Part shown: positions 919 through 28,903 of the stretch, in pieces | How the letters are laid out: every line of letters begins with the position of its first letter | How positions within the stretch are numbered: position 1 is the stretch's first letter | NCBI GenBank assembly: GCA_965223575.1 | Contig: CBDCWZ010000010.1 | Span: 1 to 64,000, forward strand | Origin: Kofleriaceae bacterium | GTDB taxonomy: Bacteria; Myxococcota_A; Polyangia; Haliangiales; Haliangiaceae | Direction: 5' to 3' | DNA length: 64,000 nt | The notes under the pieces: model-generated | The model's database searches: none | What the model was told of the DNA's origin: nothing | The model's input: only the letters and a program-made list of their open reading frames with translations | Position numbers and translations under genes: made by a program

Positions 919-1774
919 GGGGTGTCCTCATTAGATCCAGAGGATGGCGCAGGCCAGGAGAAGGAAACCGAGGTAACTTGTTGCCGTTTTTTCATAGCGT
1001 GTTGCGATCCGTCGCCAGCGCTTGATGGTGTGAAAGAAGCATTCCACAAGATAACGCTGCTTGTACATCTCCTTGTCATGCCGGCGTTTCCTCTTCCTTG
1101 ATTTGCCTGATGGAATTACCGGTTTCAGGCCGCGCTCTTTGAGTTCACTAATGATTCGGTCCGAATCGTACGCTCCATCTGCGAGAACAGCTTCACCGTG
1201 AACATAGTCGATCAGTTCCTCGGCCACGGTGGAATCGTGCTGCTGTCCTGGGGTAACAAGGATATGGATAGGTCGTGCTTTCATGTCGACCGCAACATGG
1301 ATCTTCGTGGAGAAACCGCCCCTTGAGCGACCTATTTCGTTTTTTTTGGACCGCCCTTTCCACCCGAAGCATCCTGATGAGTGCGAACAACGGAACCATC
1401 TAGGATCGCACCGATCTCATCATCGTTCAGGCACAAGGCGCGAAATATGTCACGCCAACGGTCCTTGTTCGCCCAGCGCCAGAATCGATTGTACACAGTC
1501 TTCCACGGACCAAATCGCTCAGGAAGATCTCTCCACGGTGCACCCGTTTTTCCAATCCAGTGCACTGCGTTGATAAAACTTCGGTCTCCCCTTTTCGACG
1601 TTTGACCGTGTGGGGGCGGAAGGAGTCCCTCTATCTTGTTCCACTGTTCATCACTGAGTTCGTGGCGCCTCATATAGTGATGTTGATCAATGATCAGTTC
1701 CCGGCGCCAGTTTTTGAACCAACGGCCGGCTAACCGATCGAAATGATCCAGTTTCTAATAGGGACATCCCCTAG
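915..1774 (-). mobile_element. IS5-family (IS427-like) insertion sequence, about 860 bp
   Basis: Imperfect terminal inverted repeats CTAGGGGGTGTCCTCATTAGA (915-) and the reverse complement of 1774- (CTAGGGGATGTCCCTATTAGA). CTAG is present at both ends. Two-ORF transposase inside. Confidence 0.8.
931..1673 (-). CDS. IS5-family DDE transposase, orfA (1332-1673) and orfB (931-about 1340) joined by a -1 frameshift
   Basis: orfA has the DUF4096-type N terminus (GAPWRDLPERFGPWKTVYNRFWRW). orfB has the DDE C terminus (YDSDRI...YKQRYLVECFF..KRWRRIATRYEK). A slippery A8 run (T8 on the + strand, 1340-1347) lies in the overlap. Confidence 0.8.
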
Positions 1775-2454
1775 TACTTGTCTACCAGTCTACAAAGCGC
1801 GCATAGCCATACCAACGGACCAAAACGCATGATATCTGACCAGCTAGGTATAATTCGCAGGAAGTATTTTCCCACGAAAGTGTTGCAGTCCATCAGCCGA
1901 AATCGGGTAAGAGAAAATCCGGGCCAATTAGAAAACTATGTTCGGGCCCGTCACTTACTGTTATCAGGTGATCCGAACATCACGAGTATCGCCCAAGCTC
2001 AATGTGCAAAATGGTTAAAATGGATTCAATATTGCGATGGGAAAGGACTGATCAGCGAGGCAGCAGTCCCCCGGGGACGTTCTCAGCATCTGCCGACAGT
2101 CTGTCTACCTCGCTCTGAAGCAGTGAGCAGAAGTTTCAGTCTGGCGCGGTTAAAAGCCGTTCCCGCGCCCAGGTTGGACGCCGGTGTTGTACCGGTCATC
2201 CGAGCCCCGTCCCCATTCCTGCGTCACGACTCCCAGAAGCGGAGGGCGATGGGGTAATCGACGGGTCGCCGCCTGTGAAGCGAACGCTGGCGCTGACAAC
2301 GGGGGCGCGGACTGGGACGAGGACGGGAACAACACTGACCACACGTACTACGACCCCAATGTACTTTGAGTTCGTGCAGCGTGGCGGCGACGCGCATTGG
2401 GTCTGACTATTTGCCGCGCACCAACAGTATTTGCTGTCGTCAAGAACTATTCTT

Positions 2455-2463: not shown

Positions 2464-2691
2464 CGTTTTCACGAACGAGACGAACAATGACTCGCATGTT
2501 TGACATAGCCGCGACACAACCAGCGCCGAGAAAACATCTCGAGCGGCAGGGTACGTGCGCGCGCTTTAGCGATTCCGGGTTATCAGCCAGGCCAGTAGAA
2601 AGTTCGCGTATTTATCTCGCCGGCAACCTGATCTGGAATCCAGAAAGTGGGGCGGCTATGTCATGAAGCTAGTCAAATAGCACCGAGACAC

Positions 2692-2724
2692 AGCCGTCCC
2701 AGGAAAACCTCGGACGGCTTTTTC
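2692..2724 (+). terminator. Rho-independent terminator-like hairpin
   Basis: Stem agccgtcc/ggacggct (8 bp, 12-nt loop) followed by ttttt; 9 nt upstream of the first tRNA. Confidence 0.45.
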
Positions 2725-2732
2725 GTGTTTCG

Positions 2733-2874
2733 GGGGGCACTCCACGGGTTGGTTGCCGCGGCTGTAAACCGCTTGCACGAGGGTTAACTAGGGTCCTTCG
2801 GACCCGTTGCCAGGGCCGAAAAATTCCATTGCATGGAATTTGTTCACCAACCTGGTCGAGTCCTTCTGCCCCCA
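2733..2874 (+). tRNA. tRNA-Tyr(GUA)-like, split in the T-loop by a 71-nt element (2786-2856)
   Basis: Acceptor gggggca/tgccccc. Anticodon loop ctGTAaa. T arm gaggg-TT[insert]CGAGT-ccttc. D arm poorly paired, short variable loop, no CCA. Confidence 0.55.
2786..2856 (+). repeat. T-loop element copy 1 (71 nt, subfamily B)
   Basis: Starts AACTAGG. P1 gggtcc/ggaccc, P2 ccagg/cctgg, P3 gaaaaattcca/tggaatttgttc. Flanks gagggTT|CGAGTcc. Confidence 0.85.
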
Positions 2875-2983
2875 CGACGGGAGACGTGCGCCCAGAAAAT
2901 GGCGCACACGAAAAACAATGACAGCGAAGCGAAAGGAAAAACGATGACGATGACAAAACGAAAACGGATGTGCGGACAACTTC

Positions 2984-3127
2984 TGCCTCCGTGACGCAAC
3001 GGTAGCGTAACCGACTTTTAATCGGAAAGTTGGGGGTTAACTAGGATGCTTCGCATCCGTTGACGCCACGGTATAAATCCAGCGAACTGGATTTATACCG
3101 TAAGGCGGACGATTCCCTCCGGGGCAC
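2984..3127 (+). tRNA. tRNA-Lys(UUU), split in the T-loop by a 71-nt element (3039-3109)
   Basis: D arm acgc/gcgt. Anticodon loop ctTTTaa. T arm ggggg-TT[insert]CGATT-ccctc. Acceptor halves (tgcctcc / cggggca) pair imperfectly. Confidence 0.55.
3039..3109 (+). repeat. T-loop element copy 2 (71 nt, subfamily A)
   Basis: AACTAGG start. P1 ggatgc/gcatcc, P2 cgcc/ggcg, P3 ggtataaatccag/ctggatttatacc. Flanks gggggTT|CGATTcc. Confidence 0.85.
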
Positions 3128-3128
3128 G

Positions 3129-3221
3129 ACCGCGTTGCTGAAGATTTTGCAGAGCGTAGTGGACGCAGTCCACGGAGCTGCAAAAGTTCAGGCGCGTTAA
3201 CGGTCCTGTAGGGACCCAGTT
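3129..3221 (-). repeat. T-loop element copy 3 (93 nt, long subfamily C, reverse)
   Basis: The reverse complement starts AACTGGGTCC and ends ...CAGCAACGCGGT. Flanks on the element strand are gaTT|CGtg. Lies between tRNA-Lys(UUU) and tRNA-Gln(CUG). Confidence 0.75.
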
Positions 3222-3227
3222 AATCAT

Positions 3228-3298
3228 TCGGAGATCGTCTAACGGTAGGACGACTGGCTCTGGACCAGTAAATCGGGGTTCGAATCCCTGTCTCCGAC
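3228..3298 (+). tRNA. tRNA-Gln(CUG)
   Basis: Acceptor tcggaga/tctccga. D arm gtct/ggac. Anticodon loop ctCTGga. T arm cgggg-ttcgaat-ccctg. The 3' end is abutted by reverse element copy 4. Confidence 0.8.
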
Positions 3299-3367
3299 CG
3301 CGTTGCTGAACAAATTCAACGAAGTGGAATTTTTCAGCCGCGATAACGGGTCCGAAGGACCCTAGTT
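3297..3367 (-). repeat. T-loop element copy 4 (71 nt, subfamily B, reverse)
   Basis: The reverse complement reads AACTAGGGTCCTTCGGACCCGTT...GCAACGCGGT. P2 cgcg/cgcg. Element-strand flanks ctggTT|CGgaga. Excising it restores tctccgaACCA. Confidence 0.85.
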
Positions 3368-3502
3368 AACCAGAACGAAACTGCGGTGTTCGCGACACGA
3401 GTGCCTTGAGTGGCCAGGGTGAACGACATCATCGGTGGATTCGCGATCTTTGACAACTGAATAGCGACGACGACAACGCGGGGCGTTTCCCGACGCCCCA
3501 TT

Positions 3503-3578
3503 TCCCACTTTGGCGTAGGTGGTCCGCGCGCCGGTCTGAAGAGCCGGAGGACCTGGTTCGATTCCAGGAGGGTGGGAC
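3503..3578 (+). tRNA. tRNA-Phe(GAA)-like, aberrant acceptor/T junction
   Basis: Anticodon arm ccggt-ctGAAga-gccgg. T arm cctgg-ttcgatt-ccagg. tcccact/ggtggga pair only if 2 extra nt follow the T stem. Confidence 0.45.
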
Positions 3579-3584
3579 TTTTGC

Positions 3585-3737
3585 GGGTTCGTGGTGAAAC
3601 AGGATCATACCGGGTTCTTACCCCGTGAGTGAACTGCGCGCGGCCGAAGGCCGTGCTCGTTACCGCGGTTGAAAAATTCCAGTTTGTACTGGAATTTGTT
3701 CAACAACGCGGTGAGCGTGCAAATCGTTCCGGACCCA
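3585..3737 (+). tRNA. tRNA-Lys(CUU), split between the variable loop and the T stem by an 81-nt element (3632-3712)
   Basis: Acceptor gggttcg/cggaccc. D arm gtga/tcat. Anticodon loop ttCTTac. T arm gagcg-tgcaaat-cgttc. Confidence 0.6.
3632..3712 (+). repeat. T-loop element copy 5 (81 nt, hybrid: GC-rich P1 plus B-type P3)
   Basis: AACTGCGCGC start. P1 gcgcggcc/ggccgtgc, P2 cgcg/cgcg, P3 gaaaaattccag/ctggaatttgttc. Atypical flanks gagTG|GAgcg. Confidence 0.75.
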
Positions 3738-3749
3738 CTACTCGCGTTT

Positions 3750-3893
3750 GCCCCTGGAAGCATCTGGGCGAGGCTAGCCGGCTGTCTACCGGCCGAGGAG
3801 GGTTAACTAGGATGCTCCGCATCCGTTGACGCCACTGTACAAATCCAGCGAACTGGATTTGTACAGTAAGGCGGACGATTCCCTTCAGGGGCG
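3750..3893 (+). tRNA. tRNA-Asp(GUC), split in the T-loop by a 71-nt element (3805-3875)
   Basis: Acceptor gcccctg/caggggc (perfect). Anticodon arm gccgg-ctGTCta-ccggc. T arm gaggg-TT[insert]CGATT-ccctt. Confidence 0.65.
3805..3875 (+). repeat. T-loop element copy 6 (71 nt, subfamily A)
   Basis: AACTAGG. P1 ggatgc/gcatcc, P2 cgcc/ggcg, P3 tgtacaaatccag/ctggatttgtaca. Flanks gagggTT|CGATTcc. Confidence 0.85.
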
Positions 3894-3933
3894 CTTTGGA
3901 AGCGCAAGCCAACTGGCGATGGCACCCGATTCG

Positions 3934-4027
3934 ACCGGGTTGCTAAACTTTTGCGAAGCAGAGCGGATGTTCGTCCGCGGAGCTGCAACAAGTTTAGACG
4001 CGGTGACGGGTCCGAAGGACCCTAGTC
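3934..4027 (-). repeat. T-loop element copy 7 (94 nt, subfamily C, reverse) in an anticodon loop
   Basis: The reverse complement starts GACTAGGGTCCTTCGGACCCGTCACCGCG and ends ...CAACCCGGT. Element-strand flanks cccgagTT|CGAAtcggg. Confidence 0.75.
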
Positions 4028-4042
4028 AACTCGGGGCAGGTT

Positions 4043-4117
4043 AACTGCGCGCGCCTTCGGCGTGCTCGTTAACGCCGCTGTACAACTCCAGTTGCTGGAT
4101 TTGTACAGCAAGGCGGA
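4043..4117 (+). repeat. T-loop element copy 8 (75 nt, hybrid: GC-rich P1 plus A-type P3)
   Basis: AACTGCGCGC. P1 gcgcgcc/ggcgtgc, P2 cgcc/ggcg, P3 ctgtacaactccag/ctggatttgtacag. Flanks gcaggTT|CAACTcc. Confidence 0.8.
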
Positions 4118-4140
4118 CAACTCCTGTCGCTTCCGCCGAT

Positions 4141-4223
4141 GGAAGGTAATCAGGCTGCGGAGCCTGGCCCGGCTGCTACCCGGTGCGCGCCAACAGCGTC
4201 TGGCTCGACTCCAGTGCCTTCCG
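4141..4223 (+). tRNA. tRNA-Ser(GCU), class II
   Basis: Acceptor ggaaggt/gccttcc. Anticodon loop ctGCTac. Long variable arm. G73. T-loop ctcgact. Confidence 0.7.
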
Positions 4224-4227
4224 CAAT

Positions 4228-4302
4228 GGCCCGGTCGTCTAATGGTCAGGACACGAGGCTTTCAATCTCGGAATCGGAGTTCGATTCTCCGTCGGGTCAC
4301 CA
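4228..4302 (+). tRNA. tRNA-Glu(UUC)
   Basis: Acceptor ggcccgg/tcgggtc. D arm gtct/ggac. Loop ctTTCaa. T arm cggag-ttcgatt-ctccg. Encoded CCA. Confidence 0.85.
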
Positions 4303-4303
4303 C

Positions 4304-4375
4304 GGGCTGATAGTGATAGTGGGAACACGCTGCTTTCGCACGGCAGAAAGCCGGGTTCGAATCCCGGTCGGTCCA
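4304..4375 (+). tRNA. tRNA-Ala(CGC)
   Basis: Acceptor gggctga/tcggtcc with G3:U70. Loop ttCGCac. T arm ccggg-ttcgaat-cccgg. Begins 1 nt after the preceding tRNA. Confidence 0.8.
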
Positions 4376-4391
4376 CTTTAGCTCCTTCAAT

Positions 4392-4467
4392 GGGCACGCA
4401 TGTACCAAGGGGGCGAGCTGGCCTTGCAAGCCGGCTGTGGTCGGTTCGATTCCGACCGTGTCCACCA
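4392..4467 (+). tRNA. tRNA-Ala(UGC), D arm poorly paired
   Basis: Acceptor gggcacg/cgtgtcc with G3:U70. Anticodon arm ctggc-ctTGCaa-gccgg. T arm gtcgg-ttcgatt-ccgac. CCA. Confidence 0.6.
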
Positions 4468-4474
4468 TCCAATA

Positions 4475-4620
4475 CCAGGTGTAAGTCAGCGGCAGACGGC
4501 ATCGTTTGGGACGATGCAGACGGAGGTTAACTAGGATGCTCCGCATCCGTTGACGCCACTGTACAAATCCAGCGAACTGGATTTGTACAGTAAGGCGGAC
4601 GATTCCTCCAGGGGGCACCA
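4475..4620 (+). tRNA. tRNA-Pro(UGG), split in the T-loop by a 71-nt element (4529-4599); acceptor halves non-complementary
   Basis: Anticodon arm catcg-ttTGGga-cgatg. T arm ggagg-TT[insert]CGATT-cctcc (perfect). 5' ccaggtg versus 3' agggggc do not pair. CCA present. Confidence 0.5.
4529..4599 (+). repeat. T-loop element copy 9 (71 nt, subfamily A)
   Basis: Nearly identical to copy 6. Flanks ggaggTT|CGATTcc. Confidence 0.85.
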
Positions 4621-4634
4621 CACGCATCGATCTT

Positions 4635-4708
4635 CCGCCGGTAGTTCAACGGGAGAACTGTCGCCTGATAAGCGGCCAATGGTGGTTCGATTCCACCCTG
4701 GCGGACCA
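4635..4708 (+). tRNA. tRNA-Ile(GAU)
   Basis: Acceptor ccgccgg/ctggcgg. D arm gttc/gaac. Loop ctGATaa. T arm ggtgg-ttcgatt-ccacc. CCA. Confidence 0.85.
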
Positions 4709-4709
4709 T

Positions 4710-4784
4710 GGTGATCGTAGCTCAAAGGTAGAGCACTCGGCTGTGACCCGAGCGGTGGGAGTTCGATTCTCCTCGATCACCCCA
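4710..4784 (+). tRNA. tRNA-His(GUG) with G-1
   Basis: G-1 opposite C73. Acceptor gtgatcg/cgatcac. D arm gctc/gagc. Loop ctGTGac. CCA. Confidence 0.85.
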
Positions 4785-4796
4785 ACTTCCTTTTCA

Positions 4797-4870
4797 GCGG
4801 GCTTGGCGTAACAGCAGCGTATCAGGCTTCCAACCTGAGGGTACGGGTGCAATTCCCGTAGCCCGCACCA
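4797..4870 (+). tRNA. tRNA-Gly(UCC)
   Basis: Acceptor gcgggct/agcccgc. Anticodon arm tcagg-ctTCCaa-cctga. T arm acggg-tgcaatt-cccgt (unusual T-loop). CCA. Confidence 0.75.
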
Positions 4871-4872
4871 AC

Positions 4873-4943
4873 GCCTTCGTAGCACAGGGGCAGTGCACTG
4901 GTTTCGTACTCCAGGGACGTGGGTTCGATTCCCGCCGAAGGCT
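4873..4943 (+). tRNA. tRNA-Thr(CGU)
   Basis: Acceptor gccttcg/cgaaggc. D arm gcac/gtgc. Loop ttCGTac. T arm gtggg-ttcgatt-cccgc. Confidence 0.75.
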
Positions 4944-4947
4944 CCGC

Positions 4948-5018
4948 TTCGGTGTCGTCCAACGGCAGGACAGCGGTCTTTGAAGCCGACGACCGGGGTT
5001 CGAATCCCTGCACCGGAA
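4948..5018 (+). tRNA. tRNA-Gln(UUG)
   Basis: Acceptor ttcggtg/caccgga. D arm gtcc/ggac. Loop ctTTGaa. T arm cgggg-ttcgaat-ccctg. Confidence 0.75.
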
Positions 5019-5022
5019 CTGC

Positions 5023-5096
5023 GCCTCTCGTAGCCATCTGGGAAGGCACCTGCCTTGTAAGCAGGCTAGGCGGTTCGATTCCGACGAGGGGCTCCA
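5023..5096 (+). tRNA. tRNA-Thr(UGU)
   Basis: Acceptor gcctctc/gaggggc. Anticodon arm cctgc-ctTGTaa-gcagg. T arm ggcgg-ttcgatt-ccgac (1 mismatch). CCA. Confidence 0.65.
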
Positions 5097-5101
5097 TCTA
5101 T

Positions 5102-5173
5102 TCCTCCGTGGCTTAACGGTAGAGCACCCGGCTGTTAACCGGGGATGTGCAGGTTCGACTCCTGCCGGGGAGC
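5102..5173 (+). tRNA. tRNA-Asn(GUU)
   Basis: D arm gctt/gagc. Anticodon arm cccgg-ctGTTaa-ccggg. T arm gcagg-ttcgact-cctgc. One C:A mismatch in the acceptor. Confidence 0.7.
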
Positions 5174-5176
5174 TAT

Positions 5177-5329
5177 GTCGCTATCGTCCAGTTGGCGAGG
5201 ACGCCGGTCTCTCAAGCCGGAAACGGCGGGTTAACTAGGATGCTTCGCATCCGTTGACGCCGCTGAACAAATCCAGCGAACTGGATTTGTTCAGCAAGGC
5301 GGGCAAGTCCCCCTCCCCTAGCGACGCCA
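5177..5329 (+). tRNA. tRNA-Glu(CUC), split in the T-loop by a 71-nt element (5233-5303)
   Basis: Acceptor gtcgcta/tagcgac (perfect). D arm gtcc/ggac. Loop ctCTCaa. TT[insert]CAAGT. The 3' T-stem side carries 5 extra nt. CCA. Confidence 0.6.
5233..5303 (+). repeat. T-loop element copy 10 (71 nt, subfamily A)
   Basis: AACTAGG. P1 ggatgc/gcatcc, P2 cgcc/ggcg, P3 ctgaacaaatccag/ctggatttgttcag. Flanks gcgggTT|CAAGTcc. Confidence 0.85.
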
Positions 5330-5340
5330 TGCGATCGTCG

Positions 5341-5416
5341 ACCGCGTTGCTGAACAAATTCAACGAAGTGGAATTTTTCAGCCGCGGTAACGAGCACGCC
5401 GAAGGCGCGCGCAGTT
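5341..5416 (-). repeat. T-loop element copy 11 (76 nt, hybrid, reverse)
   Basis: The reverse complement starts AACTGCGCGCGCCTTCGGCGTGCTCGTTACCGCGG and carries a B-type P3. Element-strand flanks ttgTT|CGacga. Confidence 0.8.
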
Positions 5417-5443
5417 AACAAGAGCTATTGAGGCCAAGGGGTT

Positions 5444-5514
5444 GACTAGGGTCCTTCGGACCCGTCACCGCGGCTGTAATCCTCCAGTAAACTGGATGAT
5501 TACAGCAACGCGGT
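5444..5514 (+). repeat. T-loop element copy 12 (71 nt, B-like variant)
   Basis: GACTAGG start. P1 gggtcc/ggaccc, P2 cgcg/cgcg, P3 ctgtaatcctccag/ctggatgattacag. Flanks aggggTT|CGATTcc. Confidence 0.8.
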
Positions 5515-5535
5515 CGATTCCCACCGTCGGCTCCA
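5515..5535 (+). tRNA. Orphan tRNA 3' fragment (half T-loop, T stem, acceptor, CCA)
   Basis: cgatt-cccac-cgtcggc-t-cca follows copy 12. Only about 25 nt lie upstream between copies 11 and 12, so the 5' two-thirds of the gene are missing. Confidence 0.4.
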
Positions 5536-5543
5536 ATCACTAT

Positions 5544-5615
5544 GCCTCCACCCAAGGATGGGACGCGGCGCTACGAACGCTGTCGATGAAGGTTCGAGTC
5601 CTTCTGGAGGTGCCA
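5544..5615 (+). tRNA. tRNA-Arg(ACG)-like with a compact D arm
   Basis: Acceptor gcctcca/tggaggt. ccca-agga-tggg hairpin directly after the acceptor. Anticodon arm cggcg-ctACGaa-cgctg. T arm gaagg-ttcgagt-ccttc. CCA. Confidence 0.55.
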
Positions 5616-5617
5616 AT

Positions 5618-5687
5618 ACCACCGCACGTGGACTCGTGGCCTGGGGTTCCGAACCTTGGTGAAGCAGTTCGATTCTGCTCGGTGGAC
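5618..5687 (+). tRNA. tRNA-Arg(CCG)-like with a compact D arm
   Basis: Acceptor accaccg/cggtgga (6 of 7 paired). cacg-tggact-cgtg hairpin. Loop ttCCGaa. T arm agcag-ttcgatt-ctgct. Confidence 0.5.
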
Positions 5688-5785
5688 CGGGTTGCTGTAG
5701 TTATGCAAAGCGGAGCGGACGGAAGGTCCGCGAAGTTGCAGAACTACAGGCGCGATAACGGGTCGAGCGTAGCGAAACCCTAGTT
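5686..5785 (-). repeat. T-loop element copy 13 (100 nt, subfamily C, reverse)
   Basis: The reverse complement starts AACTAGGGTTTCGC and ends ...CAGCAACCCGGT. Element-strand flanks aagTT|CCaccg. Abuts the tRNA-Arg(CCG)-like 3' end. Confidence 0.7.
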
Positions 5786-5793
5786 AACTTCAT

Positions 5794-5860
5794 GGGCGAC
5801 GATCTGGGATCAGCTTGGGCTCCAAATCCGAGCAGCGGGGTTCAATTCCTCGGTCGCCTG
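5794..5860 (+). tRNA. tRNA-Trp(CCA)-like with a compact D arm
   Basis: Acceptor gggcgac/gtcgcct. gatc-tgg-gatc hairpin. Anticodon arm ttggg-ctCCAaa-tccga. T arm cgggg-ttcaatt-cctcg. 67 nt. Confidence 0.5.
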
Positions 5861-5870
5861 CAACTCTTGC

Positions 5871-5943
5871 AGTCGCGTAGCCCAACGGAAGAGGCGGCAG
5901 GCTTAGAACCTGTGTGTTGGGGGTTCGAATCCTCCCGCGACTA
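5871..5943 (+). tRNA. tRNA with Leu anticodon UAG but a class-I (5-nt) variable loop
   Basis: Acceptor agtcgcg/cgcgact. Leu-type D arm gcc-caacggaaga-ggc. Anticodon arm gcagg-ctTAGaa-cctgt. T arm ggggg-ttcgaat-cctcc. A73. Confidence 0.6.
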
Positions 5944-5946
5944 CTG

Positions 5947-6091
5947 CGGTACGTAGCCCAATCGGCAGAGGCATCCAGTTTAAGCCCGGACCAGTGAGGG
6001 TTAACTAGGATGCTTCGCATCCGTTGACGCCACTGTACAAATCCAGCGAACTGGATTTGTACAGTAAGGCGGACGACTCCCTCCGTACCGA
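5947..6091 (+). tRNA. tRNA with Leu anticodon UAA, class-I variable loop, split in the T-loop (6003-6073)
   Basis: Acceptor cggtacg/cgtaccg (perfect). D arm gcc-caatcggcaga-ggc. Loop ttTAAgc (1 stem mismatch). T arm gaggg-TT[insert]CGACT-ccctc. A73. Confidence 0.55.
6003..6073 (+). repeat. T-loop element copy 14 (71 nt, subfamily A)
   Basis: Same P1, P2 and P3 as copy 6. Flanks gagggTT|CGACTcc. Confidence 0.85.
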
Positions 6092-6098
6092 CCTTCGA

Positions 6099-6243
6099 GC
6101 CAACGTAGCCCAACTGGCAGAGGCACCGGATTCAAATCGCGGACAGTATCGGTTAACTAGGATGCTCTGCATCCGTTAACGCCGCCGAACAAATCCAGCG
6201 AACTGGATTTGTTCAGCAAGGCGGACGACTCCGATCGTTGGCA
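6099..6243 (+). tRNA. tRNA with Leu anticodon CAA, class-I variable loop, split in the T-loop (6155-6225)
   Basis: Acceptor gccaacg/cgttggc (perfect). D arm gcc-caactggcaga-ggc. Loop ttCAAat (2 stem mismatches). T arm atcgg-TT[insert]CGACT-ccgat (perfect). A73. Confidence 0.5.
6155..6225 (+). repeat. T-loop element copy 15 (71 nt, subfamily A)
   Basis: AACTAGG. P1 ggatgc/gcatcc (loop tct), P2 cgcc/ggcg, P3 gaacaaatccag/ctggatttgttc. Flanks atcggTT|CGACTcc. Confidence 0.85.
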
Positions 6244-6249
6244 CAAAAC

Positions 6250-6408
6250 GCGGACGTGGTGGAACGGGATACACGCAACGTTGAGAGCGTTGTGAGCCAC
6301 GTGCTCAATGCCGGTTAACTCGGGGCCTTTGGACCCGTTCTCGGGGCTGAAAAATTCCACGATGTGGAATTTGTTCACCAACCCGGTCGAATCCGGCCGT
6401 CCGCACCA
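6250..6408 (+). tRNA. tRNA-Leu(GAG), class II, split in the T-loop by a 71-nt element (6317-6387)
   Basis: Acceptor gcggacg/cgtccgc (perfect). Anticodon arm caacg-ttGAGag-cgttg. 17-nt variable arm. T arm gccgg-TT[insert]CGAAT-ccggc (perfect). A73 and CCA. Confidence 0.75.
6317..6387 (+). repeat. T-loop element copy 16 (71 nt, subfamily B)
   Basis: AACTCGG start. P1 ggggcc/ggaccc, P2 cggg/cccg, P3 gaaaaattccac/gtggaatttgttc. Flanks gccggTT|CGAATcc. Confidence 0.85.
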
Positions 6409-6441
6409 TCCAGAAACATCAACCCTCAACGAAAGGCAGCC

Positions 6442-6972
6442 ATGACGGCTCAAACACTGTTGTTGTCCGCGGGCTATGAGCCGATCAAGGTCGTCTCTTG
6501 GCAACGCGCGATAACCTTACTCACGCTCGGCAAGATCGAAGTTCTGGAAGAGTATGATCGCGAAGTTCGATCCCCGACCATTGCGTTTAAGATGCCTGCG
6601 GTCGTTCGACTTTTGCAGGTACTCAAGCGCAACAAGAAGGCAGTCAAGTTCTCGCGCATCAACATCTATGCGCGGGATAAGTACCGGTGCCAATACTGCT
6701 GTCGAAAGCTACCCATCGCCGAGTTGACCTACGACCACGTCGTTCCGCGCGCGAAGGGTGGCAAGACGATTTGGCAGAACATCGTGACCGCATGCGAAAC
6801 GTGCAACAGCCGCAAGGGGAACCGGACGCCGGAGCAAGCGCACATGGCGTTGCTCAACCGGCCAACACGGCCGACTTGGGTCCCGGTCATGACGCTTCGG
6901 GTAAACCGCAACACGGCGCCCGATGCCTGGAGAGACTATCTCTACTGGACCGGTGAACTGCAAAGCGGCTGA
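6442..6972 (+). CDS. HNH endonuclease (McrA/COG1403-like, 176 aa) embedded in the tRNA array
   Basis: Motif YRCQYC...LTYDHVVPRAKGG....N.VTACETCNSRKGNR. ATG at 6442 with gaaagg 8 nt upstream. Starts 34 nt after the CCA of tRNA-Leu(GAG). Confidence 0.8.
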   Translation: MTAQTLLLSAGYEPIKVVSWQRAITLLTLGKIEVLEEYDREVRSPTIAFKMPAVVRLLQVLKRNKKAVKFSRINIYARDKYRCQYCCRKLPIAELTYDHVVPRAKGGKTIWQNIVTACETCNSRKGNRTPEQAHMALLNRPTRPTWVPVMTLRVNRNTAPDAWRDYLYWTGELQSG

Positions 6973-7029
6973 CCGCACACCGAATGCCACGGGCCACAGA
7001 TCGGATCCGCGAGCCCGCCGGCATTCACT

Positions 7030-7117
7030 GGAGAGACAAACCGATTGGCGACGGTGCTCGGCTTGAACCCGAGTGAGCGTAACTGCCTTAGGGGTTCGAC
7101 TCCCCTTCTCTCCGCCA
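7030..7117 (+). tRNA. tRNA-Ser(UGA), class II
   Basis: Acceptor ggagaga/tctctcc. Anticodon arm ctcgg-ctTGAac-ccgag. Long variable arm. T arm agggg-ttcgact-cccct. G73 and CCA. Confidence 0.85.
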
Positions 7118-7118
7118 T

Positions 7119-7203
7119 GGAAGGCATCCGAATGGTGAGGACCCCGGTTGGAAGCCGGGCGGGCGACAACGTTGCCTTGAGGGTTCGAGTCCCTCGCCTT
7201 CCG
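7119..7203 (+). tRNA. tRNA-Ser(GGA), class II
   Basis: Acceptor ggaaggc/gccttcc. Anticodon arm cccgg-ttGGAag-ccggg. Long variable arm. T arm gaggg-ttcgagt-ccctc. G73. Confidence 0.8.
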
Positions 7204-7207
7204 CTGC

Positions 7208-7276
7208 GCCTCGCGGGACGGATCCCAGCTGGGTCTTCTAAACCCGGCGCTCCAGGTTCAATTCCTGGGCGAGGTA
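7208..7276 (+). tRNA. tRNA-Arg(UCU)-like with a compact D arm
   Basis: Acceptor gcctcgc/gcgaggt. ggga-cgga-tccc hairpin directly after the acceptor. Anticodon arm tgggt-ctTCTaa-acccg. T arm ccagg-ttcaatt-cctgg. Confidence 0.55.
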
Positions 7277-7277
7277 C

Positions 7278-7345
7278 GGCTCCTCTGATGGACCAGTCCC
7301 GGCTCTTCTAAAGCTGGAGAGAGCGTTCGATTCGCTCAGGAGCCA
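7278..7345 (+). tRNA. tRNA-Arg(UCU)-like (second copy) with a compact D arm
   Basis: Acceptor ggctcct/aggagcc. ctg-atggac-cag hairpin. Anticodon arm cggct-ctTCTaa-agctg. T arm gagcg-ttcgatt-cgctc. Confidence 0.55.
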
Positions 7346-7538
7346 CTTCGCGCCCCGAACACGCGAAGACTCCTACAGCTTCGCGCGTATTTCGCCACCT
7401 CAACCGTACTGGTCATTGATCCGGGTGGATGTCCGCCCATCGCACGCCGAACTTCGCAAGGTACTTGCGAACACGATCTGAATCGTTGGCGCTCGAGACT
7501 TGGGCGAAATCGATACGTTTCGAAATACGGCGAAATAA

Positions 7539-7580
7539 GGGGTCAGACTGAAGTTATAACTTCAGTCTGACCCCACTTTT
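7539..7580. terminator. Perfect 16-bp hairpin, terminator-like, downstream of the tRNA array
   Basis: ggggtcagactgaagt-tataa-cttcagtctgacccc followed by actttt. Confidence 0.5.
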
Positions 7581-7659
7581 CCCGTCAACCAATTCTCACG
7601 GCTTACTCCAGATTGTTGCCAGCATACGGTTCTCCCGCTATCTCTACTATAATCAATCA

Positions 7660-8850
7660 ATGCTCTGCGTGTTTTGCAATTCTCTGTTGCCTTCGAAGAA
7701 GCCCGAACATGTAGTGAGCGCCTTCCTCGGTGGAAGACGAAGCTCAAGGAATCTGCTCTGTGATCTCCACAATGAAACGTTCGGCGGCTCATTTGAACGC
7801 CACGCGGCCAAAGGACTAGCCTCTCTGGCGAACATGCTTGGTGTCAGGAGCGGTCGCCGGCGAGCACCGCCACAAATTCAGGGCATTAAGGGACCAGACA
7901 AGTCTGAGACTTACACGCTCTTGCCAGGAGCAAAGATCATTCAACCCAAAGCGAAGGTCGAGATCGACGAGTCGGAGAACGGGCAGGTTCGAATACGCAT
8001 CAGAGCTGATGCAACCAAAGGCCATCAGATCCATAAGATTCTGGAGAGTTTCGCAGCCAAGTACGGAACCACGCTAGACGAAACGATTTTAGCCCAAGCC
8101 AACGTTACACAGATTCAACTCCCATCGCCCATTGAACTTGATATCACCCTAGGGCCGGACCTGCTGCGTTCACTCTCAAAAATCTCGTTACTACTTCTCG
8201 CTACCAAGACCGGTACAGTCGCGGTTCGAGGCTCCGCCTTTGAGGATGTTCGCAGGTTCATCGAGATCGGCGGACCAAGCAGTGAGTTCATTCGGATGAA
8301 TTCGGCAGCAAAGCTACCAACCATAGTAGGTCTGCACGAACCAGCAGTAGCCGTGCATCGTTTTTTGGTGTACGCAACTCGCGAATTCGGCTGTTTTGCG
8401 ACAATCGAACTGTATGGATGTTTTCTATTCACAGGCCTTCTTTCCAAGGAGTGGAACTCTGAAAATATTAGCGTTGGCCACTCGGTCAACCCCATCACCG
8501 AGCAACACTTCGTAGCTTATAATTTCAGTTCATCACCAATTTCGATTGACCAATTTGCTACTATCAAAGGCGATCAGGTAGCCACCAATGGCCGGCTGGA
8601 CAATCTGTTGAGCTTCGCAATAAGGCGTATGCAACAGCAAGCTCTTGAAGAAATGGTCGCACGATGTATTAATGAAAGCATTGGTAAGAGCGAGGATGTC
8701 ATTACTGAGGAAATGATCGCCAAATTGACCATGTCCTTTGCCGAGCAGTTCGTTGCTACGCAGAAGGGATACGTTCTAGAGCGACAACTCACCATTGACG
8801 ACGTTATTCCTCGAACTCCGACAGGAGAGCCCGACGGCCCTGATGAGTGA
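7660..8850 (+). CDS. HNH_5-type nuclease-domain protein with an uncharacterised C-terminal region (396 aa)
   Basis: N terminus CVFCNS...KPEHVVSAFLGG...LCDLHN matches the CxxC...EH..P..LGG...C..CN pattern of HNH_5 endonucleases. I do not recognise the rest. Confidence 0.55.
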   Translation: MLCVFCNSLLPSKKPEHVVSAFLGGRRSSRNLLCDLHNETFGGSFERHAAKGLASLANMLGVRSGRRRAPPQIQGIKGPDKSETYTLLPGAKIIQPKAKVEIDESENGQVRIRIRADATKGHQIHKILESFAAKYGTTLDETILAQANVTQIQLPSPIELDITLGPDLLRSLSKISLLLLATKTGTVAVRGSAFEDVRRFIEIGGPSSEFIRMNSAAKLPTIVGLHEPAVAVHRFLVYATREFGCFATIELYGCFLFTGLLSKEWNSENISVGHSVNPITEQHFVAYNFSSSPISIDQFATIKGDQVATNGRLDNLLSFAIRRMQQQALEEMVARCINESIGKSEDVITEEMIAKLTMSFAEQFVATQKGYVLERQLTIDDVIPRTPTGEPDGPDE

Positions 8851-9122
8851 TATGGGGATGGTCGCGGTAGGAATGGCCCTTAGCACTCAAGGGTTCGGGC
8901 CACCCCCCGCACAGATCCCGGCGTGCACTACCAATGCACCGGGCTCCTGCCTCGGGTCAAACGCACAAGCGCTCGTTTGGATAAGGATGTGTGATGCGGA
9001 CTGTGGGGATCCATTTGTCTGCCAACCGATACATTCGCTTCCAGGTCATCCTGGTTTTGTCGCTTCGCCGCCTCAGGCTACGATACCACAAGTGGAGGGA
9101 ATGGGGACGCGTTTCGACGGGA

Positions 9123-23377: not shown

Positions 23378-24973
23378 TTATTCCTGATCGACAATCTTCT
23401 CAGCGAGCCATTGAGCAGGGGTAGCGGTTCTCAGCTGGTTGGCGGAGATGCCGGCGGCGATTCTGTGAAAGATGTCTCTGAGATACTCGTAGGGGTTGGC
23501 GCCGACAAGGGTGCAGTTGAGCACAGCAGTCATGATGGTGGCGTAGCGTTGTCCTGCTTCGCGAGAGCCGACGAAGAGTGCATTTTTGCGAACCAGCGTA
23601 ACGATCCGGAGCGCACGCTCGACATGGGCATTGGAGATCGGCACCGAACCGAACTGCAAAAACAGGCCCAGGGCTTCGCGCTGCCGAGTCCAGTAGGTAA
23701 GCGCTTTGGCCAAGGGGGTACGAGATTTCCTCTGTTGGGCAAACTTGGCAACATAAGCATCGATGTCCGCAATCATGGCAACAGAATGTTGTTGACGAAG
23801 CGCGAGGCGTTGTTCGTCAGTCATCTGGTTGTCCTGGGCGTAACGCTCCACCTGATACAGTCTTGCCATCAAATCGATGACTGGTGCAGCTCGTTTGTCA
23901 CCACTGTCGAGCGCATGAACAAATTTTCTACGCGAATGGTCCATACAGCCAGCCTGCCGTGGTGGGGCCAATCCTCGATAGAGTTTTTTGATTCCCGCAT
24001 ATCCATCATGTTGCGTGTTGCCCTGAAATTCGGCGAGAAGTTTACAAGGGTAAATCCCTTTCCAGTCCGGCGAAAATTCACAATACGCGGTCCGCCCGCG
24101 ATCGCCCAAATAGATCCAAAATCGCCCACGCTGAATGTTTTTGGGATGGGCAGGATTTTGCATTGGCATGGGGGTATCGTCAAAGCTGATCAGTGCGCTC
24201 TTGAGTAGGTCTGTCTTGGCGCCTGGGTTAAAAACGGATAACAGCTCGGCCCCTTGCGCATACCACTGTCCCAATGTTTTGTCAGATAGCTCGATCCCGC
24301 GTCGCAGCAATGCGGTGCTTTGACGATACAGAGGCATCGCGTCGCAGACTTTGCTCGTCATGATTTGCGCCATCAGGCTGGGGGTTACCACGGAGCCTGG
24401 GATCAGTTTGGGCGTTAAATTCCCGCTGACAATGCCGTCTTTGCAGTCACGACACGCGTATTTATGAGCGCGTTCTTCGCGGACGAAGGCATGTTGCTGG
24501 TTCAAATTCTAGGTGCACTGTTTTGTCGAAACCAATGTGGTCCTTTTCGCGATTGCAGCCATTACAGTGGCGTTCCGAATCAGGGGGATGTTTGTCGTCG
24601 ATCACTCGCTCGAGATTGTCTAAATTTGTGGTCCGCTTCTTACGCTTTTTTCTCTTGTGAGCAGGAGTCTTCGATCGTTTCCTTTGGTAAGTCCGAAGGC
24701 CCCCTCGGCCACCATGTATTCTAGGAGCGCGAGTGACAACTGAGCCGGGGAGATTTTTTCTGAGCTCGGACGATATTTCGACGCAATCTGCCTCCGCATA
24801 CCATCGATTTCTTGTTTCATGCGCTCAATGATCGGCATGGCTTCGGCAAGAACTTCTTGGCCGGCTTCACGCTCCTTGTCCGTTGCCAGATTGGCAGTGA
24901 CCGAAACAAGAAATTCGTGAATCGATGCCGTATCGATAGAGCCTTCCCACGTCCCCACACCTCCTTGTATCAC
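23378..24973 (-). pseudogene. IS66 TnpC transposase, at least 2 frameshifts
   Basis: Catalytic part 23378-24505 (..MPLYRQ...DDTPMP..GRFWIY..). N-terminal coiled coil 24620-24973. The zinc-finger segment between them is in another frame. Confidence 0.7.
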
Positions 24974-25734
24974 GCGTGTCCGACATTCTCACCTTTACGA
25001 AACTCTTGATTGCGATTGTTTTTCCGCGAAGAAGTTTCGCCAAATCCTCTGCTTTGATCTCGATCGTGTTCCTGATCTTGTTTGGGAATCGGAAATGTCC
25101 CAGACTCAAGTCGCTTCGCCAAAATGCAATATCCCTGCTGATCAAAAAACAAAATCTTGAGCAGATGACGCCGACGATTGGCAAATACGTATAGATGGCC
25201 GGTTTCTGGATCTGCGTCCAGCGCTTCACGAACAACCTTCGCAAGACCATCAAACTGTTTCCTCATGTCAACAGGATTCACTGCCACAAAAACGCGGACC
25301 TTCGTCGGTAGCGTTAACATGAGCCATCCAGAGAGTTTGCCCACTCGCAGACATTCTCGCCGATCCGACTTGGAACAAAACAATAAACGCCTGCCGTTTT
25401 TGAGAACGAGCTCGTAGCGGGGTTCTCCGCTCAAAGCAATCTCGTCACGAACCTTTACTTCAACAAATTCTGTCTGGCCAGATTGTTTTTCACGCCTCTG
25501 CCAACTCCATAACGCAGACGCCGAGATCCCATGATGTTTGCCAAATTCTACCGCAGACCGATTGCTCTTCTGCCATGCGCGGAGAATCTTTCGCTGCTCT
25601 GCACGACTTCTTTGAATCCGTTTTTGCATTCCATGCGGTTTAACTCGACAGGCTGCTGCGCGAAACATGGGGCTCACGGGGCGCATACGCCGAGAACGTC
25701 TCTGGGGGGACTGCTCGTTCTGGGATCCATTCAC
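24970..25734 (-). CDS. IS66 TnpA (HTH) and TnpB (Orf2) read as one frame
   Basis: AVEFGKHHGISASALWSW (TnpA), then LPTKVRVFVAVNPVDMRKQFDGLAKVV...LYVFANRRRHLLKILFFD (TnpB). Confidence 0.7.
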   Translation of the reverse strand: MNGSQNEQSPQRRSRRMRPVSPMFRAAACRVKPHGMQKRIQRSRAEQRKILRAWQKSNRSAVEFGKHHGISASALWSWQRREKQSGQTEFVEVKVRDEIALSGEPRYELVLKNGRRLLFCSKSDRRECLRVGKLSGWLMLTLPTKVRVFVAVNPVDMRKQFDGLAKVVREALDADPETGHLYVFANRRRHLLKILFFDQQGYCILAKRLESGTFPIPKQDQEHDRDQSRGFGETSSRKNNRNQEFRKGENVGHA

Positions 25735-26999: not shown

Positions 27000-28024
27000 T
27001 CATCGGCTTCCTCTCGAATAATCGCAAAACGCTTGGGTGCACCCAAATCCTCCGCTCCCAGCTCCGAGCAGCGGAAGCGCCACCGTCCGTGCTCCCAACC
27101 AGTGTGCCAGGCGAAGGGATGACTGCGCCGCTTGTCTGATCGATTGCTCCGACGCTCGCCACGCCAGATCAATCGCGTCGGCGTGGATCACCCACTTCGC
27201 CGCAAGCTGGCCGGCGTTTGTTTCCATGGCGTTGCCCAGCGGCAGTGGGCCTGCTCTGCCGGCGGCCGCAATGACTGCCCGCCCGCCCGCACTGCGGATC
27301 GCCCGCGCCACTCCCTGGGGTATGACAAGCCACGGAGGGATGAGATTTCGATTCCACGCGTTCACGATGGCATCGACTTCGCGAGCGGCGATATCTCCCT
27401 CAACCTCGATGATCTCGGCCCGGGTGGCGCTCACCGCCTCCTGAACGGCGAGTCGATCTGCCAGCCAGACGAGGGAATCGCGATGCTGAACTGTGCCCGC
27501 CCACTTCTCAGGGAGGGCTAGGACTCCGATTTGGGCGCCGATGCACGCCGCTACTGTGGCACCAATGCTGTCGGTATCTCCGCCTGCGCGGAACACTGCA
27601 TTCATCGCAGCCTGAATATCCGTGCCGTGATCGAGGAGAGTGTGAACCACGGCCGACATGCAACCGCAATGGTAAGCTGTGTATCGTCGGATACATCTCC
27701 GGGACGGCGCAAGAAACGAATTAGGCCCCGCCGCATTCGTACTGCACCAGGATAACGAAGTCGAGTCATCCAACGCGGTAGGCTCTCCGCTGGCAGGTTG
27801 AGCGCATCACCGACACCCAGGCCAACCAAGCAACCACGGCATCGATCGATGCGCTCACTCACCTCGCGAGAATCGGTTGGTTCAAGCTCCGGGTAGGCGT
27901 GTCGAGCCCAGCGAATTCGGCACGCCGCCACGAAAGCTCTCCAAACAAGATACCCGGCGCTGACGATCCACAGCGCCGTGAAGGCGAAGCGCACCAAGTC
28001 CACCGTCATTGTGCTCCCTCCCAA
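27000..28024 (-). pseudogene. ADP-ribosylglycohydrolase (ARH/DraG-like) fused to a macro domain, frameshifted near 27.65-27.77 kb
   Basis: N-terminal CLVGLGVGDALNLP...SDDTQL (frame of 27602-28024). GGDTDSIGATVAACIG, then macro motifs NAWN...GNAMET...LPLLGAGSGGF (27000-27773). Confidence 0.65.
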
Positions 28025-28194: not shown

Positions 28195-28204
28195 ATAAGA
28201 AACC

Positions 28205-28894: not shown

Positions 28895-28903
28895 GGAATC
28901 AAC

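Follow-up and report, generated by a model that had tools for sequence, protein, structure and literature searches.

Long accessory tRNA arrays (L-arrays) are horizontally transferred tRNA operons that have been described in cyanobacteria and actinobacteria (PMC8421152, PMC5966550). Their most widespread and conserved protein-coding companion is a gene for an HNH endonuclease (PMC8421152, PMC5966550), and the L-array of Anabaena is regulated together with rtcB (PMC8421152). The stretch of DNA analysed here (the window) comprises 64,000 nucleotides of a Kofleriaceae bacterium, positions 1 to 64,000 of contig CBDCWZ010000010.1, and holds an array that shows the features by which L-arrays are recognised: over 20 tightly spaced tRNA genes, an HNH gene among them, and a location on mobile DNA. 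Copies of a structured repeat of 67-100 nt are dispersed through this array, and one tRNA gene, at 3898-4135, carries two of them in opposite orientations. This gene is quite likely a degenerate tRNA-Ser(CGA) in a mobile L-array, hit twice by a small, non-autonomous, hairpin-forming mobile DNA element.

In a preliminary description made from the sequence alone, 3898-4135 was read as a single tRNA gene, and the present analysis bears this out in detail. The acceptor halves ggaagcg (3898-3904) and cgcttcc (4128-4134) pair at seven of seven positions, with G4135 as the discriminator. The anticodon arm consists of cccga (3925-3929) and tcggg (4031-4035) around TTCG[3934-4027]AAC, and the T arm of gcagg (4036-4040), TT[4043-4117]CAACT, and cctgt (4123-4127). 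The same ends of both copies, and the same total of 16 copies in the window, were obtained by an independent delimitation based on an alignment of all window repeats. After removal of the two inserts, the remaining 71 nt, with a few downstream bases, align with tRNA-Ser(CGA) of four related arrays and with three other Ser tRNAs of the window. Common to the aligned set are the acceptor GGAAG../..CTTCC and its discriminator G, a D arm of the Ser type, the anticodon arm (CGA), and the T arm; moreover, the gene order Ser(CGA)-Ser(GCT)-Glu is kept in the related arrays. Because of this alignment and the kept neighbour order, the locus is taken as one gene homologous to tRNA-Ser(CGA), and assignment of the two acceptor halves to different genes is contradicted. 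The uninterrupted anticodon loops of the orthologues read TTCGAAA (loci L029 and L001) and TTCGAAC (L038), so that they do not conflict with the loop TTCGAAC reconstructed for the window gene.

A defect overlooked in the preliminary description is the complete absence of the variable region, as the T stem directly follows TCGGG. A long variable arm is a feature of every Ser tRNA; it measures 15-19 nt in all Ser orthologues aligned, versus 0 in the gene at 3898-4135. ARAGORN, even at lowered thresholds, rejects the doubly excised sequence. On account of the missing arm and this rejection, the gene is probably a degenerate tRNA-Ser(CGA) pseudogene that would be dead even without its two inserts.

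The preliminary description further proposed that the element recognises GTT^CGA (here and below, a caret marks the insertion point) by sequence or hairpin, and that it takes the orientation of the strand carrying this motif. The orientation rule proved real and reproducible, with independent reverse insertions at the complements of an anticodon loop and a D-loop. TTCGAA is palindromic; in the Ser(CGA) anticodon loop the minus strand reads G-TTCGAA-T, which resembles a T-loop, whereas the plus strand reads A-TTCGAA-C. The copy in this loop (R3) is reversed because the flanking base of the minus strand makes a T-loop with closing G. Likewise, a tRNA-Arg(TCG) of L001 carries a reverse copy (2168-2258) in its anticodon loop, CTTCG^AA; the minus strand of this loop reads GGTT^CGAAGCC, and excision of the copy gives back a 76-nt tRNA. 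There the insertion follows anticodon-loop position 36, versus 35 in the window Ser(CGA) gene; thus, the rule tracks sequence and not tRNA position. In L003, a reverse copy occupies the tRNA-Leu D-loop sequence GCCC^AAC, with the complement GTT^GGGC.

As to the motif itself, GTT on either strand was upheld as the target, but CGA turned out to be a property of T-loops rather than a requirement. At the 35 non-T-loop sites, GTT at positions -3 to -1 is the one nearly constant feature (G in 32, T in 31, and T in 31), while at T-loop sites GGT(T/G) directly precedes the element in 24 of 24. The 3' flank is weak, and CGA is found there only at T-loops or T-loop mimics. Similarly, a stem flanking the target is favoured but not required: the mean longest match between flanks, 4.4, is only modestly above the 3.85 of shuffled sequences (P about 0.003), and a stem around GTT is striking at L094 (10 bp), L077, L008, L068, and L110. 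Taken together, the sites support recognition of GTT on either DNA strand, with a preference for G-TT^CGA within a loop.

On the element strand, the target GTT is followed by RAC-TA, a hairpin (hp1), GTY plus three bases, and a helix (P3) that closes a second, long hairpin (hp2). Hairpin hp1 has 5-7 bp, most commonly in the form GGGTCC-NNN-GGACCC, and its forms (GGGTCC/GGACCC, GGATGC/GCATCC, and GCGCGCC/GGCGTGC) swap as a unit. P3/hp2 is variable (15-35 bp) with a small bulge on the 3' side of hp2, and the 3' strand of P3 reaches the last base of the element or ends within two nt of it, GA following P3 in the commonest window subfamily. In P3, the last bases of the element pair with the triplet after hp1 (GAC, ACC, or GCC; in the long form, GACAGG pairs with CC(A)TGTT). 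The target GTT, too, is complementary to this triplet; 6/6 junction pairing is possible in 23 of 59 unique copies. Neither terminal inverted repeats nor target duplication are present, and exact excision restores the site. The register is shifted by one base between subfamilies, from GGTT^..GGA^CGA in the commonest window type to GGT^G..CCG^TCGA in the L003 type. A C.C or C.T mismatch is conserved in hp2, and a bulged TA adjoins hp1; these pyrimidine-pyrimidine mismatches and the bulged TA look like protein-recognition features of a folded strand.

The helices evolve in a structure-preserving manner and without RNA-type wobble. Paired cells make up 94.3% of the element helices, compared with 75% after shuffling and 30-50% when the partner strand is slid, and double-sided changes occur in 14 of 24 helix pairs. 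In particular, the Ile copies of L003 and L029 differ by a compensatory G:C to C:G change in P3. No G-U pair occurs in about 220 element-helix cells, whereas the T stem of the tRNAs in this alignment has 4 in 60 cells (hypergeometric P about 0.002, ignoring relatedness). A selected RNA fold is expected to tolerate G-U on its own strand only. When 59 unique copies were folded without wobble, single mismatches comprised 7 G.T and 11 A.C, and minimum-free-energy folds with wobble contained 49 G-U pairs on the top strand and 61 on the bottom strand. A strand bias considered from the minimum-free-energy difference, which favours the bottom strand, was rejected, as loops and pyrimidine mismatches explain it and the mismatch count is unbiased. 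Reverse, intergenic, and non-tRNA copies keep the same fold. Since the helices covary strongly without G-U and without strand asymmetry, their statistics favour a DNA-level hairpin over an RNA structure. The suggestion in the preliminary description that the inserts are transposon-like rather than classical introns is supported by these statistics and by the targeting of GTT on either strand.

All 16 window copies lie within 2786-6387 (3.6 kb), with none in the other 60 kb; 11 of them are forward and five reverse, and 9 of the 11 forward copies are exactly 71 nt long. Copies F2, F4, F6, and F9 (numbered as in Table 1) are 94-100% identical in spite of residing in different tRNA genes, and therefore point to recent spread. 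Relatives were sought by hp1-sequence pattern scans of IMG/VR, 185,579 species genomes, and metagenomes, and 131 loci were examined. The scans returned one phage-like IMG/VR contig (L001), Myxococcota metagenome-assembled genomes (MAGs), and 74 metagenome stretches; matches in other phyla were apparent chance hits, and isolated phages and plasmids gave no match to the element. Syntenic tRNA arrays with the same HNH gene, again with the element in T-loops, occur in L001, L002/L003/L026, L029, L038, and L064. A generic scan for T-loop-split tRNAs gave mostly chimeric artefacts of neighbouring tRNAs, and only family-validated inserts were kept. In silico, exact excision yields ARAGORN-valid tRNAs from six window hosts and 15 hosts in related arrays.

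Empty and filled sites can be compared directly. The Leu(CAA) gene is empty in L029, where it reads GCAGGTT^CGAATCCTGC, and the same site is filled in L003, which makes a clean empty/filled pair. The Ser(CGA) T-loop is empty in L029 and filled in L026, L003, L038, and the window. The element is not confined to tRNA genes: a long form of approx. 98 nt, GTT^RACTAGGGTCCTTCGGACCCGTYGACAGGTCTGTAACC...GGTTACAGCCATGTT^, is present at about 30 unique non-tRNA sites in several metagenomes, and in the head-to-tail copies of L126 and L130 the second copy begins exactly after the terminal GTT of the first. A complete long-form copy also lies about 40 bp from one end of each of two IS5-like miniature inverted-repeat transposable elements (MITEs) with CTAGA.. 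inverted ends, one of 265 bp and one of about 220 bp. These MITEs have multiplied it throughout the genome, and many contigs break at them. Such MITE-amplified copies number about 15 in MAG IP29b_bin.34 (L004-L037) and about 40 in metagenome Ga0214473 (e.g., L097 6604-6868).

Several observations on the related arrays may be added. At about 2300-2335 (-) of L038, a truncated copy consisting of hp1 only (approx. 29 nt) replaces part of the T-loop of a Met-like tRNA; copies can evidently decay in place. In L001, two single-copy inserts unrelated in sequence to the main family (4105-4170, 66 nt, and 3040-3115, 76 nt) sit at the same TT^CGA T-loop position of tRNA-Ser(CGA) and tRNA-Leu(CAA), respectively, and the 76-nt insert has a similar two-hairpin layout. 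L001 also contains a phage portal open reading frame (ORF) at 7279-9090. A Ro60/Rsr gene (TROVE and vWA domains) lies among the tRNA genes of L001 (4507-6075), L029 (1136-2737, -), L026, and L064, and no Ro60 homologue was found in the window by tblastn. YrlA-type Y RNAs (RF02553; two above the gathering threshold) occur in L064 (1600-1725, -), L029 (5826-5958, -), and L001 (1202-1336 and 3912-4037). The recurrence of the GGCGAATGC..GGGACTACAT motif is due to them, and the window has none. The element itself was also considered as a Y RNA/YrlA; it has no Rfam match, and the true YrlA genes of related arrays are different sequences.

If the element is a mobile DNA as favoured here, its transposition would most likely proceed via single-stranded, folded DNA and would depend on an enzyme encoded elsewhere. 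This enzyme would recognise the conserved bulged hairpin hp1 and cut after the target GTT and after the GTT/GGT-like 3' end of the element. Integration occurs precisely 3' of GTT on whichever DNA strand bears the motif, preferably where GTT opens a hairpin loop, with one subfamily inserting one base earlier (GT^T). The tRNA T-arm (stem-G53 T54 T55^C56) is the ideal and most abundant target, and the complement of a TTCGAA anticodon loop mimics it. We infer the single-stranded intermediate and an HUH-like enzyme class from this anatomy; a mechanism of this type is favoured because one hairpin-adjacent internal sequence reads both the target and the element end, as in IS200/IS605; cleavage directed by a hairpin is also the principle of other hairpin-directed recombinases. 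Another IS200/IS605-type trait is insertion 3' of a fixed motif on one strand, though only 3 nt are fixed, fewer than the four or five of known members.

A number of observations speak against this explanation. No mobilising gene for the element was found in the Pfam-scanned ORFs of the window, in the 131 loci, or inside the copies; in particular, a cognate tnpA (Y1_Tnp), with or without tnpB, was seen neither among these window ORFs nor beside copies in the loci, and the scanned window ORFs include no integrase. Moreover, hp1 and hp2 are dissimilar, in contrast to the alike hairpins at IS200/IS605 ends, and the junction pairing with the internal triplet is absent from the L003-type subfamily. 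Although the window contains approx. 2000 GTT triplets, 11 of 16 copies are counted in T-loops and none outside the array; a further cue is thus needed, such as a hairpin around the target, GGTTCGA, or the single-stranded state of a heavily transcribed array. Finally, at Ile(TAT) of L003 and L029, the only clearly orthologous filled site, the exons are identical at 72 of 74 positions, while the spacers of these arrays show about 59% identity and over 50% gaps. The contrast gives a hint of continued selection on an interrupted gene, which is unexpected for a purely destructive insertion. Between the same two loci, identity is about 94% for the Ile(TAT) element, the changes in which preserve its structure, and 78% for the HNH gene. 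Two candidate sources of the enzyme were rejected. An autonomous copy, with an ORF in hp2 or between distant ends, was not encountered, as the insert of L069 is just 190 nt long and truncation is seen in both L061 and L123; and the HNH protein belongs to a family that is also found beside viral-contig arrays without the hp1 motif.

The Ile(TAT) site leads to the main competing explanation, clearly the less likely one, according to which the forward copies are true T-loop introns: the array would be transcribed, both junctions would be cut by a protein endonuclease or by the RNA itself, and an RNA ligase such as RtcB would join G53-T54-T55 to C56, DNA mobility being secondary and reverse copies dead ends. 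In addition to the Ile(TAT) exons, which are 97% conserved at an insertion common to L003 and L029 with unalignable spacers, the interrupted genes supply anticodons missing from the arrays. These are Tyr, Asp, two Lys, Pro, and three Leu in the window, and Lys-TTT, Arg-CCT, Met, and Ile-TAT in L029. On excision, about 75% of the interrupted genes prove canonical, like their uninterrupted neighbours, and L001, with its phage portal gene, tolerates four interrupted tRNAs, including two with the unrelated inserts at TT^CGA. An RtcB gene is located 27 kb off in the window, co-regulation of an L-array with rtcB has been reported in Anabaena (PMC8421152), and the related arrays contain the RNA-quality-control genes Ro60/Rsr and YrlA.

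Against introns, however, stand the helices without G-U and without strand asymmetry, as well as the reverse, intergenic, and non-tRNA copies with the same structure. Searches with Rfam 15 of 2600-6500 (gathering and permissive thresholds, E<=5) returned only tRNA-type matches and no family for the element, and group I intron, HDV-like, theta, hammerhead, and twister ribozymes as well as Y RNA were rejected on this basis. The predicted folds contain no bulge-helix-bulge (no 3-nt bulges 4 bp apart); there, the 5' junction falls within a single-stranded segment or the P1 helix, and the 3' junction borders on P3. Relative to hp1/P3, the implied cut sites shift among subfamilies, the 5' site by 1 nt and the 3' site by 3 nt. 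Moreover, 4 of 11 forward hosts in the window are defective (the Ser(CGA)-like gene and the hosts of F6, F7, and F8/R4), as is the Lys(TTT) host of L002, and L-arrays are accessory, so that loss is tolerated. A reading of the forward copies as the first T-loop introns in bacterial or phage tRNAs, tolerated via an RNA-repair toolkit of an endonuclease and RtcB, possibly with Ro60/Rsr, is accordingly doubtful. Two likenesses were examined and discarded: a group-I-like U.G wobble at the 5' junction appears in only some copies and is no rule, and a resemblance of GUUGACUAG/GUCGA to the metazoan Ro-binding helix had no support from any model.

Collaborative homing is improbable. In such a scheme, the HNH enzyme of the array would cut the empty GGTT^CGA, repair would copy the insert from an occupied T-loop, and the insert would protect the site. 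In its favour, an HNH homologue with 52-57% identity is found at a conserved position in every element-bearing array, and HNH is the most widespread protein gene of L-arrays in general (PMC8421152, PMC5966550). However, among 17 viral-contig loci with the same HNH family, 14 of them beside arrays of 5-36 tRNAs, none has the hp1 motif or a convincing T-loop insert. Furthermore, flanks are not co-converted, as each host retains its own T-loop 3' half and T stem, and many copies reside at non-tRNA sites in contigs showing no array at that site.

Slightly less probable still is passive spread by template switching or gene conversion among directly repeated GGTT...CGAnTCC motifs without a dedicated enzyme. 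The predominance of forward T-loop copies in arrays, the precise junctions, and the near-identical copies in neighbouring genes would fit, but reverse copies, GTT-only sites, non-tRNA sites in other genomes, tandem insertion of the element behind its own GTT, and the conserved hp1 with compensatory changes are left unexplained. Least likely of all is a domesticated cis-acting module, e.g., a protein-binding, processing, or termination signal of the array transcript, for which the strong conservation of hp1 across distant copies, the conserved C.C or C.T mismatch in hp2, and three reverse copies at or within 2 nt of tRNA 3' ends could be cited, but which agrees poorly with the interruption of essential tRNA positions, the occurrence of both orientations, the varying occupancy among closely related arrays, and the high-copy passengers of two IS5-like MITEs unrelated to tRNAs.

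The coordinates of the array, of the doubly interrupted gene, and of the element copies are compiled in Table 1.

Table 1. The tRNA array of the window, the parts of its doubly interrupted Ser(CGA)-like gene, the element copies (F, forward; R, reverse), and interrupted genes of related arrays.
Feature	Position	Strand	Description
L-array	2733-7345	+	Long accessory tRNA array, approx. 33 tRNA or tRNA-like genes; sole element-bearing region of the window
F1	2786-2856	+	71 nt; T-loop of tRNA-Tyr(GTA) 2733-2875
F2	3039-3109	+	71 nt; T-loop of tRNA-Lys(TTT) 2984-3127
R1	3129-3221	-	93 nt; intergenic, just 3' of tRNA-Lys(TTT); element-strand flanks ATT^..^CGTG
R2	3297-3367	-	71 nt; abuts 3' end of tRNA-Gln(CTG); flanks GGTT^..^CGGA
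F3	3632-3712	+	81 nt; variable region of tRNA-Lys(CTT) 3585-3737; flanks GTG^..^GAG
F4	3805-3875	+	71 nt; T-loop of tRNA-Asp(GTC) 3750-3894; identical to F6 over 79 nt
Ser(CGA)-like host, 5' part	3898-3933	+	Acceptor 5' strand, D arm, anticodon stem 5' strand, loop TTCG (from sequence and Ser tRNA alignment)
R3	3934-4027	-	94 nt, long-hp2 form; minus strand GTT^GACTAGGGTCCTTCGGACCCGTCACC...CCCGGT^CGAATC
Ser(CGA)-like host, middle	4028-4042	+	AAC, anticodon stem TCGGG, T stem GCAGG, T54 T55; variable region absent
F5	4043-4117	+	75 nt; T-loop, T55/C56 boundary
Ser(CGA)-like host, 3' part	4118-4135	+	CAACT, T stem CCTGT, acceptor CGCTTCC, discriminator G
F6	4529-4599	+	71 nt; T-loop of Pro(TGG)-like gene, acceptor strands no longer pairing
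F7	5233-5303	+	71 nt; T-loop of Glu(CTC)-like gene; extra CCCCT between T stem and acceptor
R4	5341-5416	-	76 nt; degenerate tRNA-like remnant; flanks TGTT^..^CGAC
F8	5444-5514	+	71 nt; T-arm-like site of the R4 remnant
R5	5686-5785	-	100 nt; abuts 3' end of tRNA-Arg(CCG)-like gene; flanks AGTT^..^CCAC
F9	6003-6073	+	71 nt; T-loop of tRNA-Leu(TAA) 5947-6093
F10	6155-6225	+	71 nt; T-loop of tRNA-Leu(CAA) 6099-6244
F11	6317-6387	+	71 nt; T-loop of tRNA-Leu(GAG) 6250-6408
HNH endonuclease gene	6442-6972	+	Inside the array; generic L-array gene, not element-specific
L029 hosts			Lys-TTT, Arg-CCT, Ile-TAT, Met-CAT; valid tRNAs on excision
L003 hosts			Val-GAC, Ile-TAT, Leu-TAA, Leu-CAA, Ser-TGA; valid on excision
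L026 hosts			Ser-CGA, Glu-TTC; valid on excision
L038 host			Ser-CGA; valid on excision
L001 hosts			Asp-GTC, Val-GAC; valid on excision

The window is a piece of bacterial chromosome, with genes for the large and small subunits of glutamate synthase, HflX, an ABC-F protein, and TPR and DUF1554 proteins. ARAGORN finds 16 intact tRNA genes in the array, and six further ones (Tyr-GTA, Lys-TTT, Asp-GTC, Leu-TAA, Leu-CAA, and Leu-GAG) upon excision of the repeats; more atypical tRNA-like genes are seen by eye or with Rfam. Five uninterrupted tRNA-like genes are missed by ARAGORN, namely Ser-GCT with the T-loop CTCGACT (4141-4222), Arg-ACG (5544-5613), Arg-CCG (5621-5685), Trp-CCA (5793-5860), and a second Arg-TCT (7280-7345). 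Position 55 of tRNAs is nearly universally T or pseudouridine. A G is found there in the otherwise good tRNA-Gly(TCC) at 4797-4870 (T-loop TGCAATT) and in the tRNA-Lys(CTT) (T-loop TGCAAAT, 3713-3737). In the host of F6 (4470-4625), which resembles Pro-TGG, the acceptor strands are not complementary and F6 is identical to F4; recombination between these two copies may have created a chimeric host gene. Between the T stem and the acceptor 3' strand of the F7 host, CCCCT is duplicated in tandem (CCCCT CCCCT, 5304-5330); this 5-nt duplication could be the footprint of another event.

Upstream of the array lies a DDE transposase fragment (931-1284), within a stretch of IS4/IS5-type transposase fragments at 931-1673 (-). 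Downstream are a gene for an MqsA antitoxin, a second HNH-like ORF, and an IS66 element. The HNH-like ORF, just downstream of the array at 7660-8850 (+), encodes 396 amino acids with a weak N-terminal HNH-like match and has no homologue in related loci; the IS66 transposase and its Orf2 partner occupy 23378-25734 (-). Together with a cluster of macro-domain, ADP-ribosylglycohydrolase, and NUDIX/NrtR genes at 27000-29401, the IS66 and IS4/IS5 region looks like a mobile or defence island. The RtcB RNA ligase gene is located at 33543-34691 (-), adjoined by an RbfA-like ORF, and a DTW-domain gene at 45504-46130.

The element behaves like a hairpin-directed transposon of single-stranded DNA that seeks out tRNA genes. 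One simple rule, insertion at a GTT that lies in a loop of either strand, accounts for the T-loop, anticodon-loop, and D-loop insertions, and the preferred landing site is formed by the most conserved seven bases of all tRNA genes. In the window, six otherwise canonical tRNA genes are hidden from standard tRNA finders, and five more remain unrecognised even on excision; the tRNA repertoires of Myxococcota and phage tRNA arrays are therefore under-counted. The location of the arrays beside RNA-repair genes (RtcB, and Ro60/YrlA in relatives) makes them a test system for protein-enzyme tRNA splicing in bacteria. T-loop introns, if true, would provide a physiological splicing substrate for bacterial RtcB and bear on the long-standing question of the role of this ligase. 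The mobilising enzyme, if found, would be a hairpin-guided integrase that reads 3 nt on folded DNA, a possible tool.

Among known systems, the element can be compared first with the palindrome-associated transposable elements (PATEs) derived from IS200/IS605, which are moved by the Y1 HUH transposase TnpA. Both lack inverted terminal repeats and target duplication, insert strand-specifically 3' of a short fixed sequence, have subterminal hairpins, one of them bulged, and can form head-to-tail tandems; in both, the element 3' end resembles the target and an internal sequence is complementary to both cleavage sites. In contrast to PATEs, the two hairpins of the present element are unrelated in sequence and length, its target is 3 nt (GTT) with a strong T-loop preference, the junction is shifted by one base in one subfamily, and no cognate tnpA/tnpB was found in the scanned window ORFs and loci.

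Short repeats that act as folded single strands, with structure kept by compensatory changes and with extrahelical bases, are also known from repetitive extragenic palindromic (REP) sequences and bacterial interspersed mosaic elements (BIMEs) with REP-associated tyrosine transposases (RAYTs), from IS110/IS1111, and from attC sites. IS1111 elements share the insertion into hairpins such as attC or REP, and integrons the crossover G^TT. However, REPs are not inserted within genes at a fixed base, and an attC site is one imperfect hairpin with RYYYAAC/GTTRRRY cores that depends on IntI, whereas the element has two hairpins and only a GTT/GTYRAC resemblance. Moreover, no RAYT, IS110-type gene, or integrase is seen here.

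Of tRNA introns, the transposing introns of Thermoproteales are likewise related short inserts across the tRNA genes of one genome, including the T arm, and their exact removal restores the tRNA. They are spliced at a bulge-helix-bulge by EndA and RtcB, whereas the present element belongs to a bacterial or phage host, has no bulge-helix-bulge and no G-U, and is also found antisense and at non-tRNA sites. Group I introns are intervening, potentially mobile sequences in bacterial and phage tRNA genes as well, but those are ribozymes of 200-400 nt with a P1-P9 core, located in the anticodon loop in sense orientation only, while the element has 67-100 nt, no Rfam intron match, and a mostly T-loop location. 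The host locus is itself an L-array, a type known from cyanobacteria, actinobacteria, and their phages, as seen from its over 30 tRNA genes, the HNH gene within it, its atypical and pseudo-tRNAs, and its links to RNA-repair genes (PMC8421152, PMC5966550). Structured inserts in the T-loops of array tRNAs are not reported in the literature searched, nor in PMC8421152 and PMC5966550, in which intron and interruption terms were sought. The family thus appears to be undescribed so far, and to be kin to the hairpin-directed, duplication-free miniature elements.

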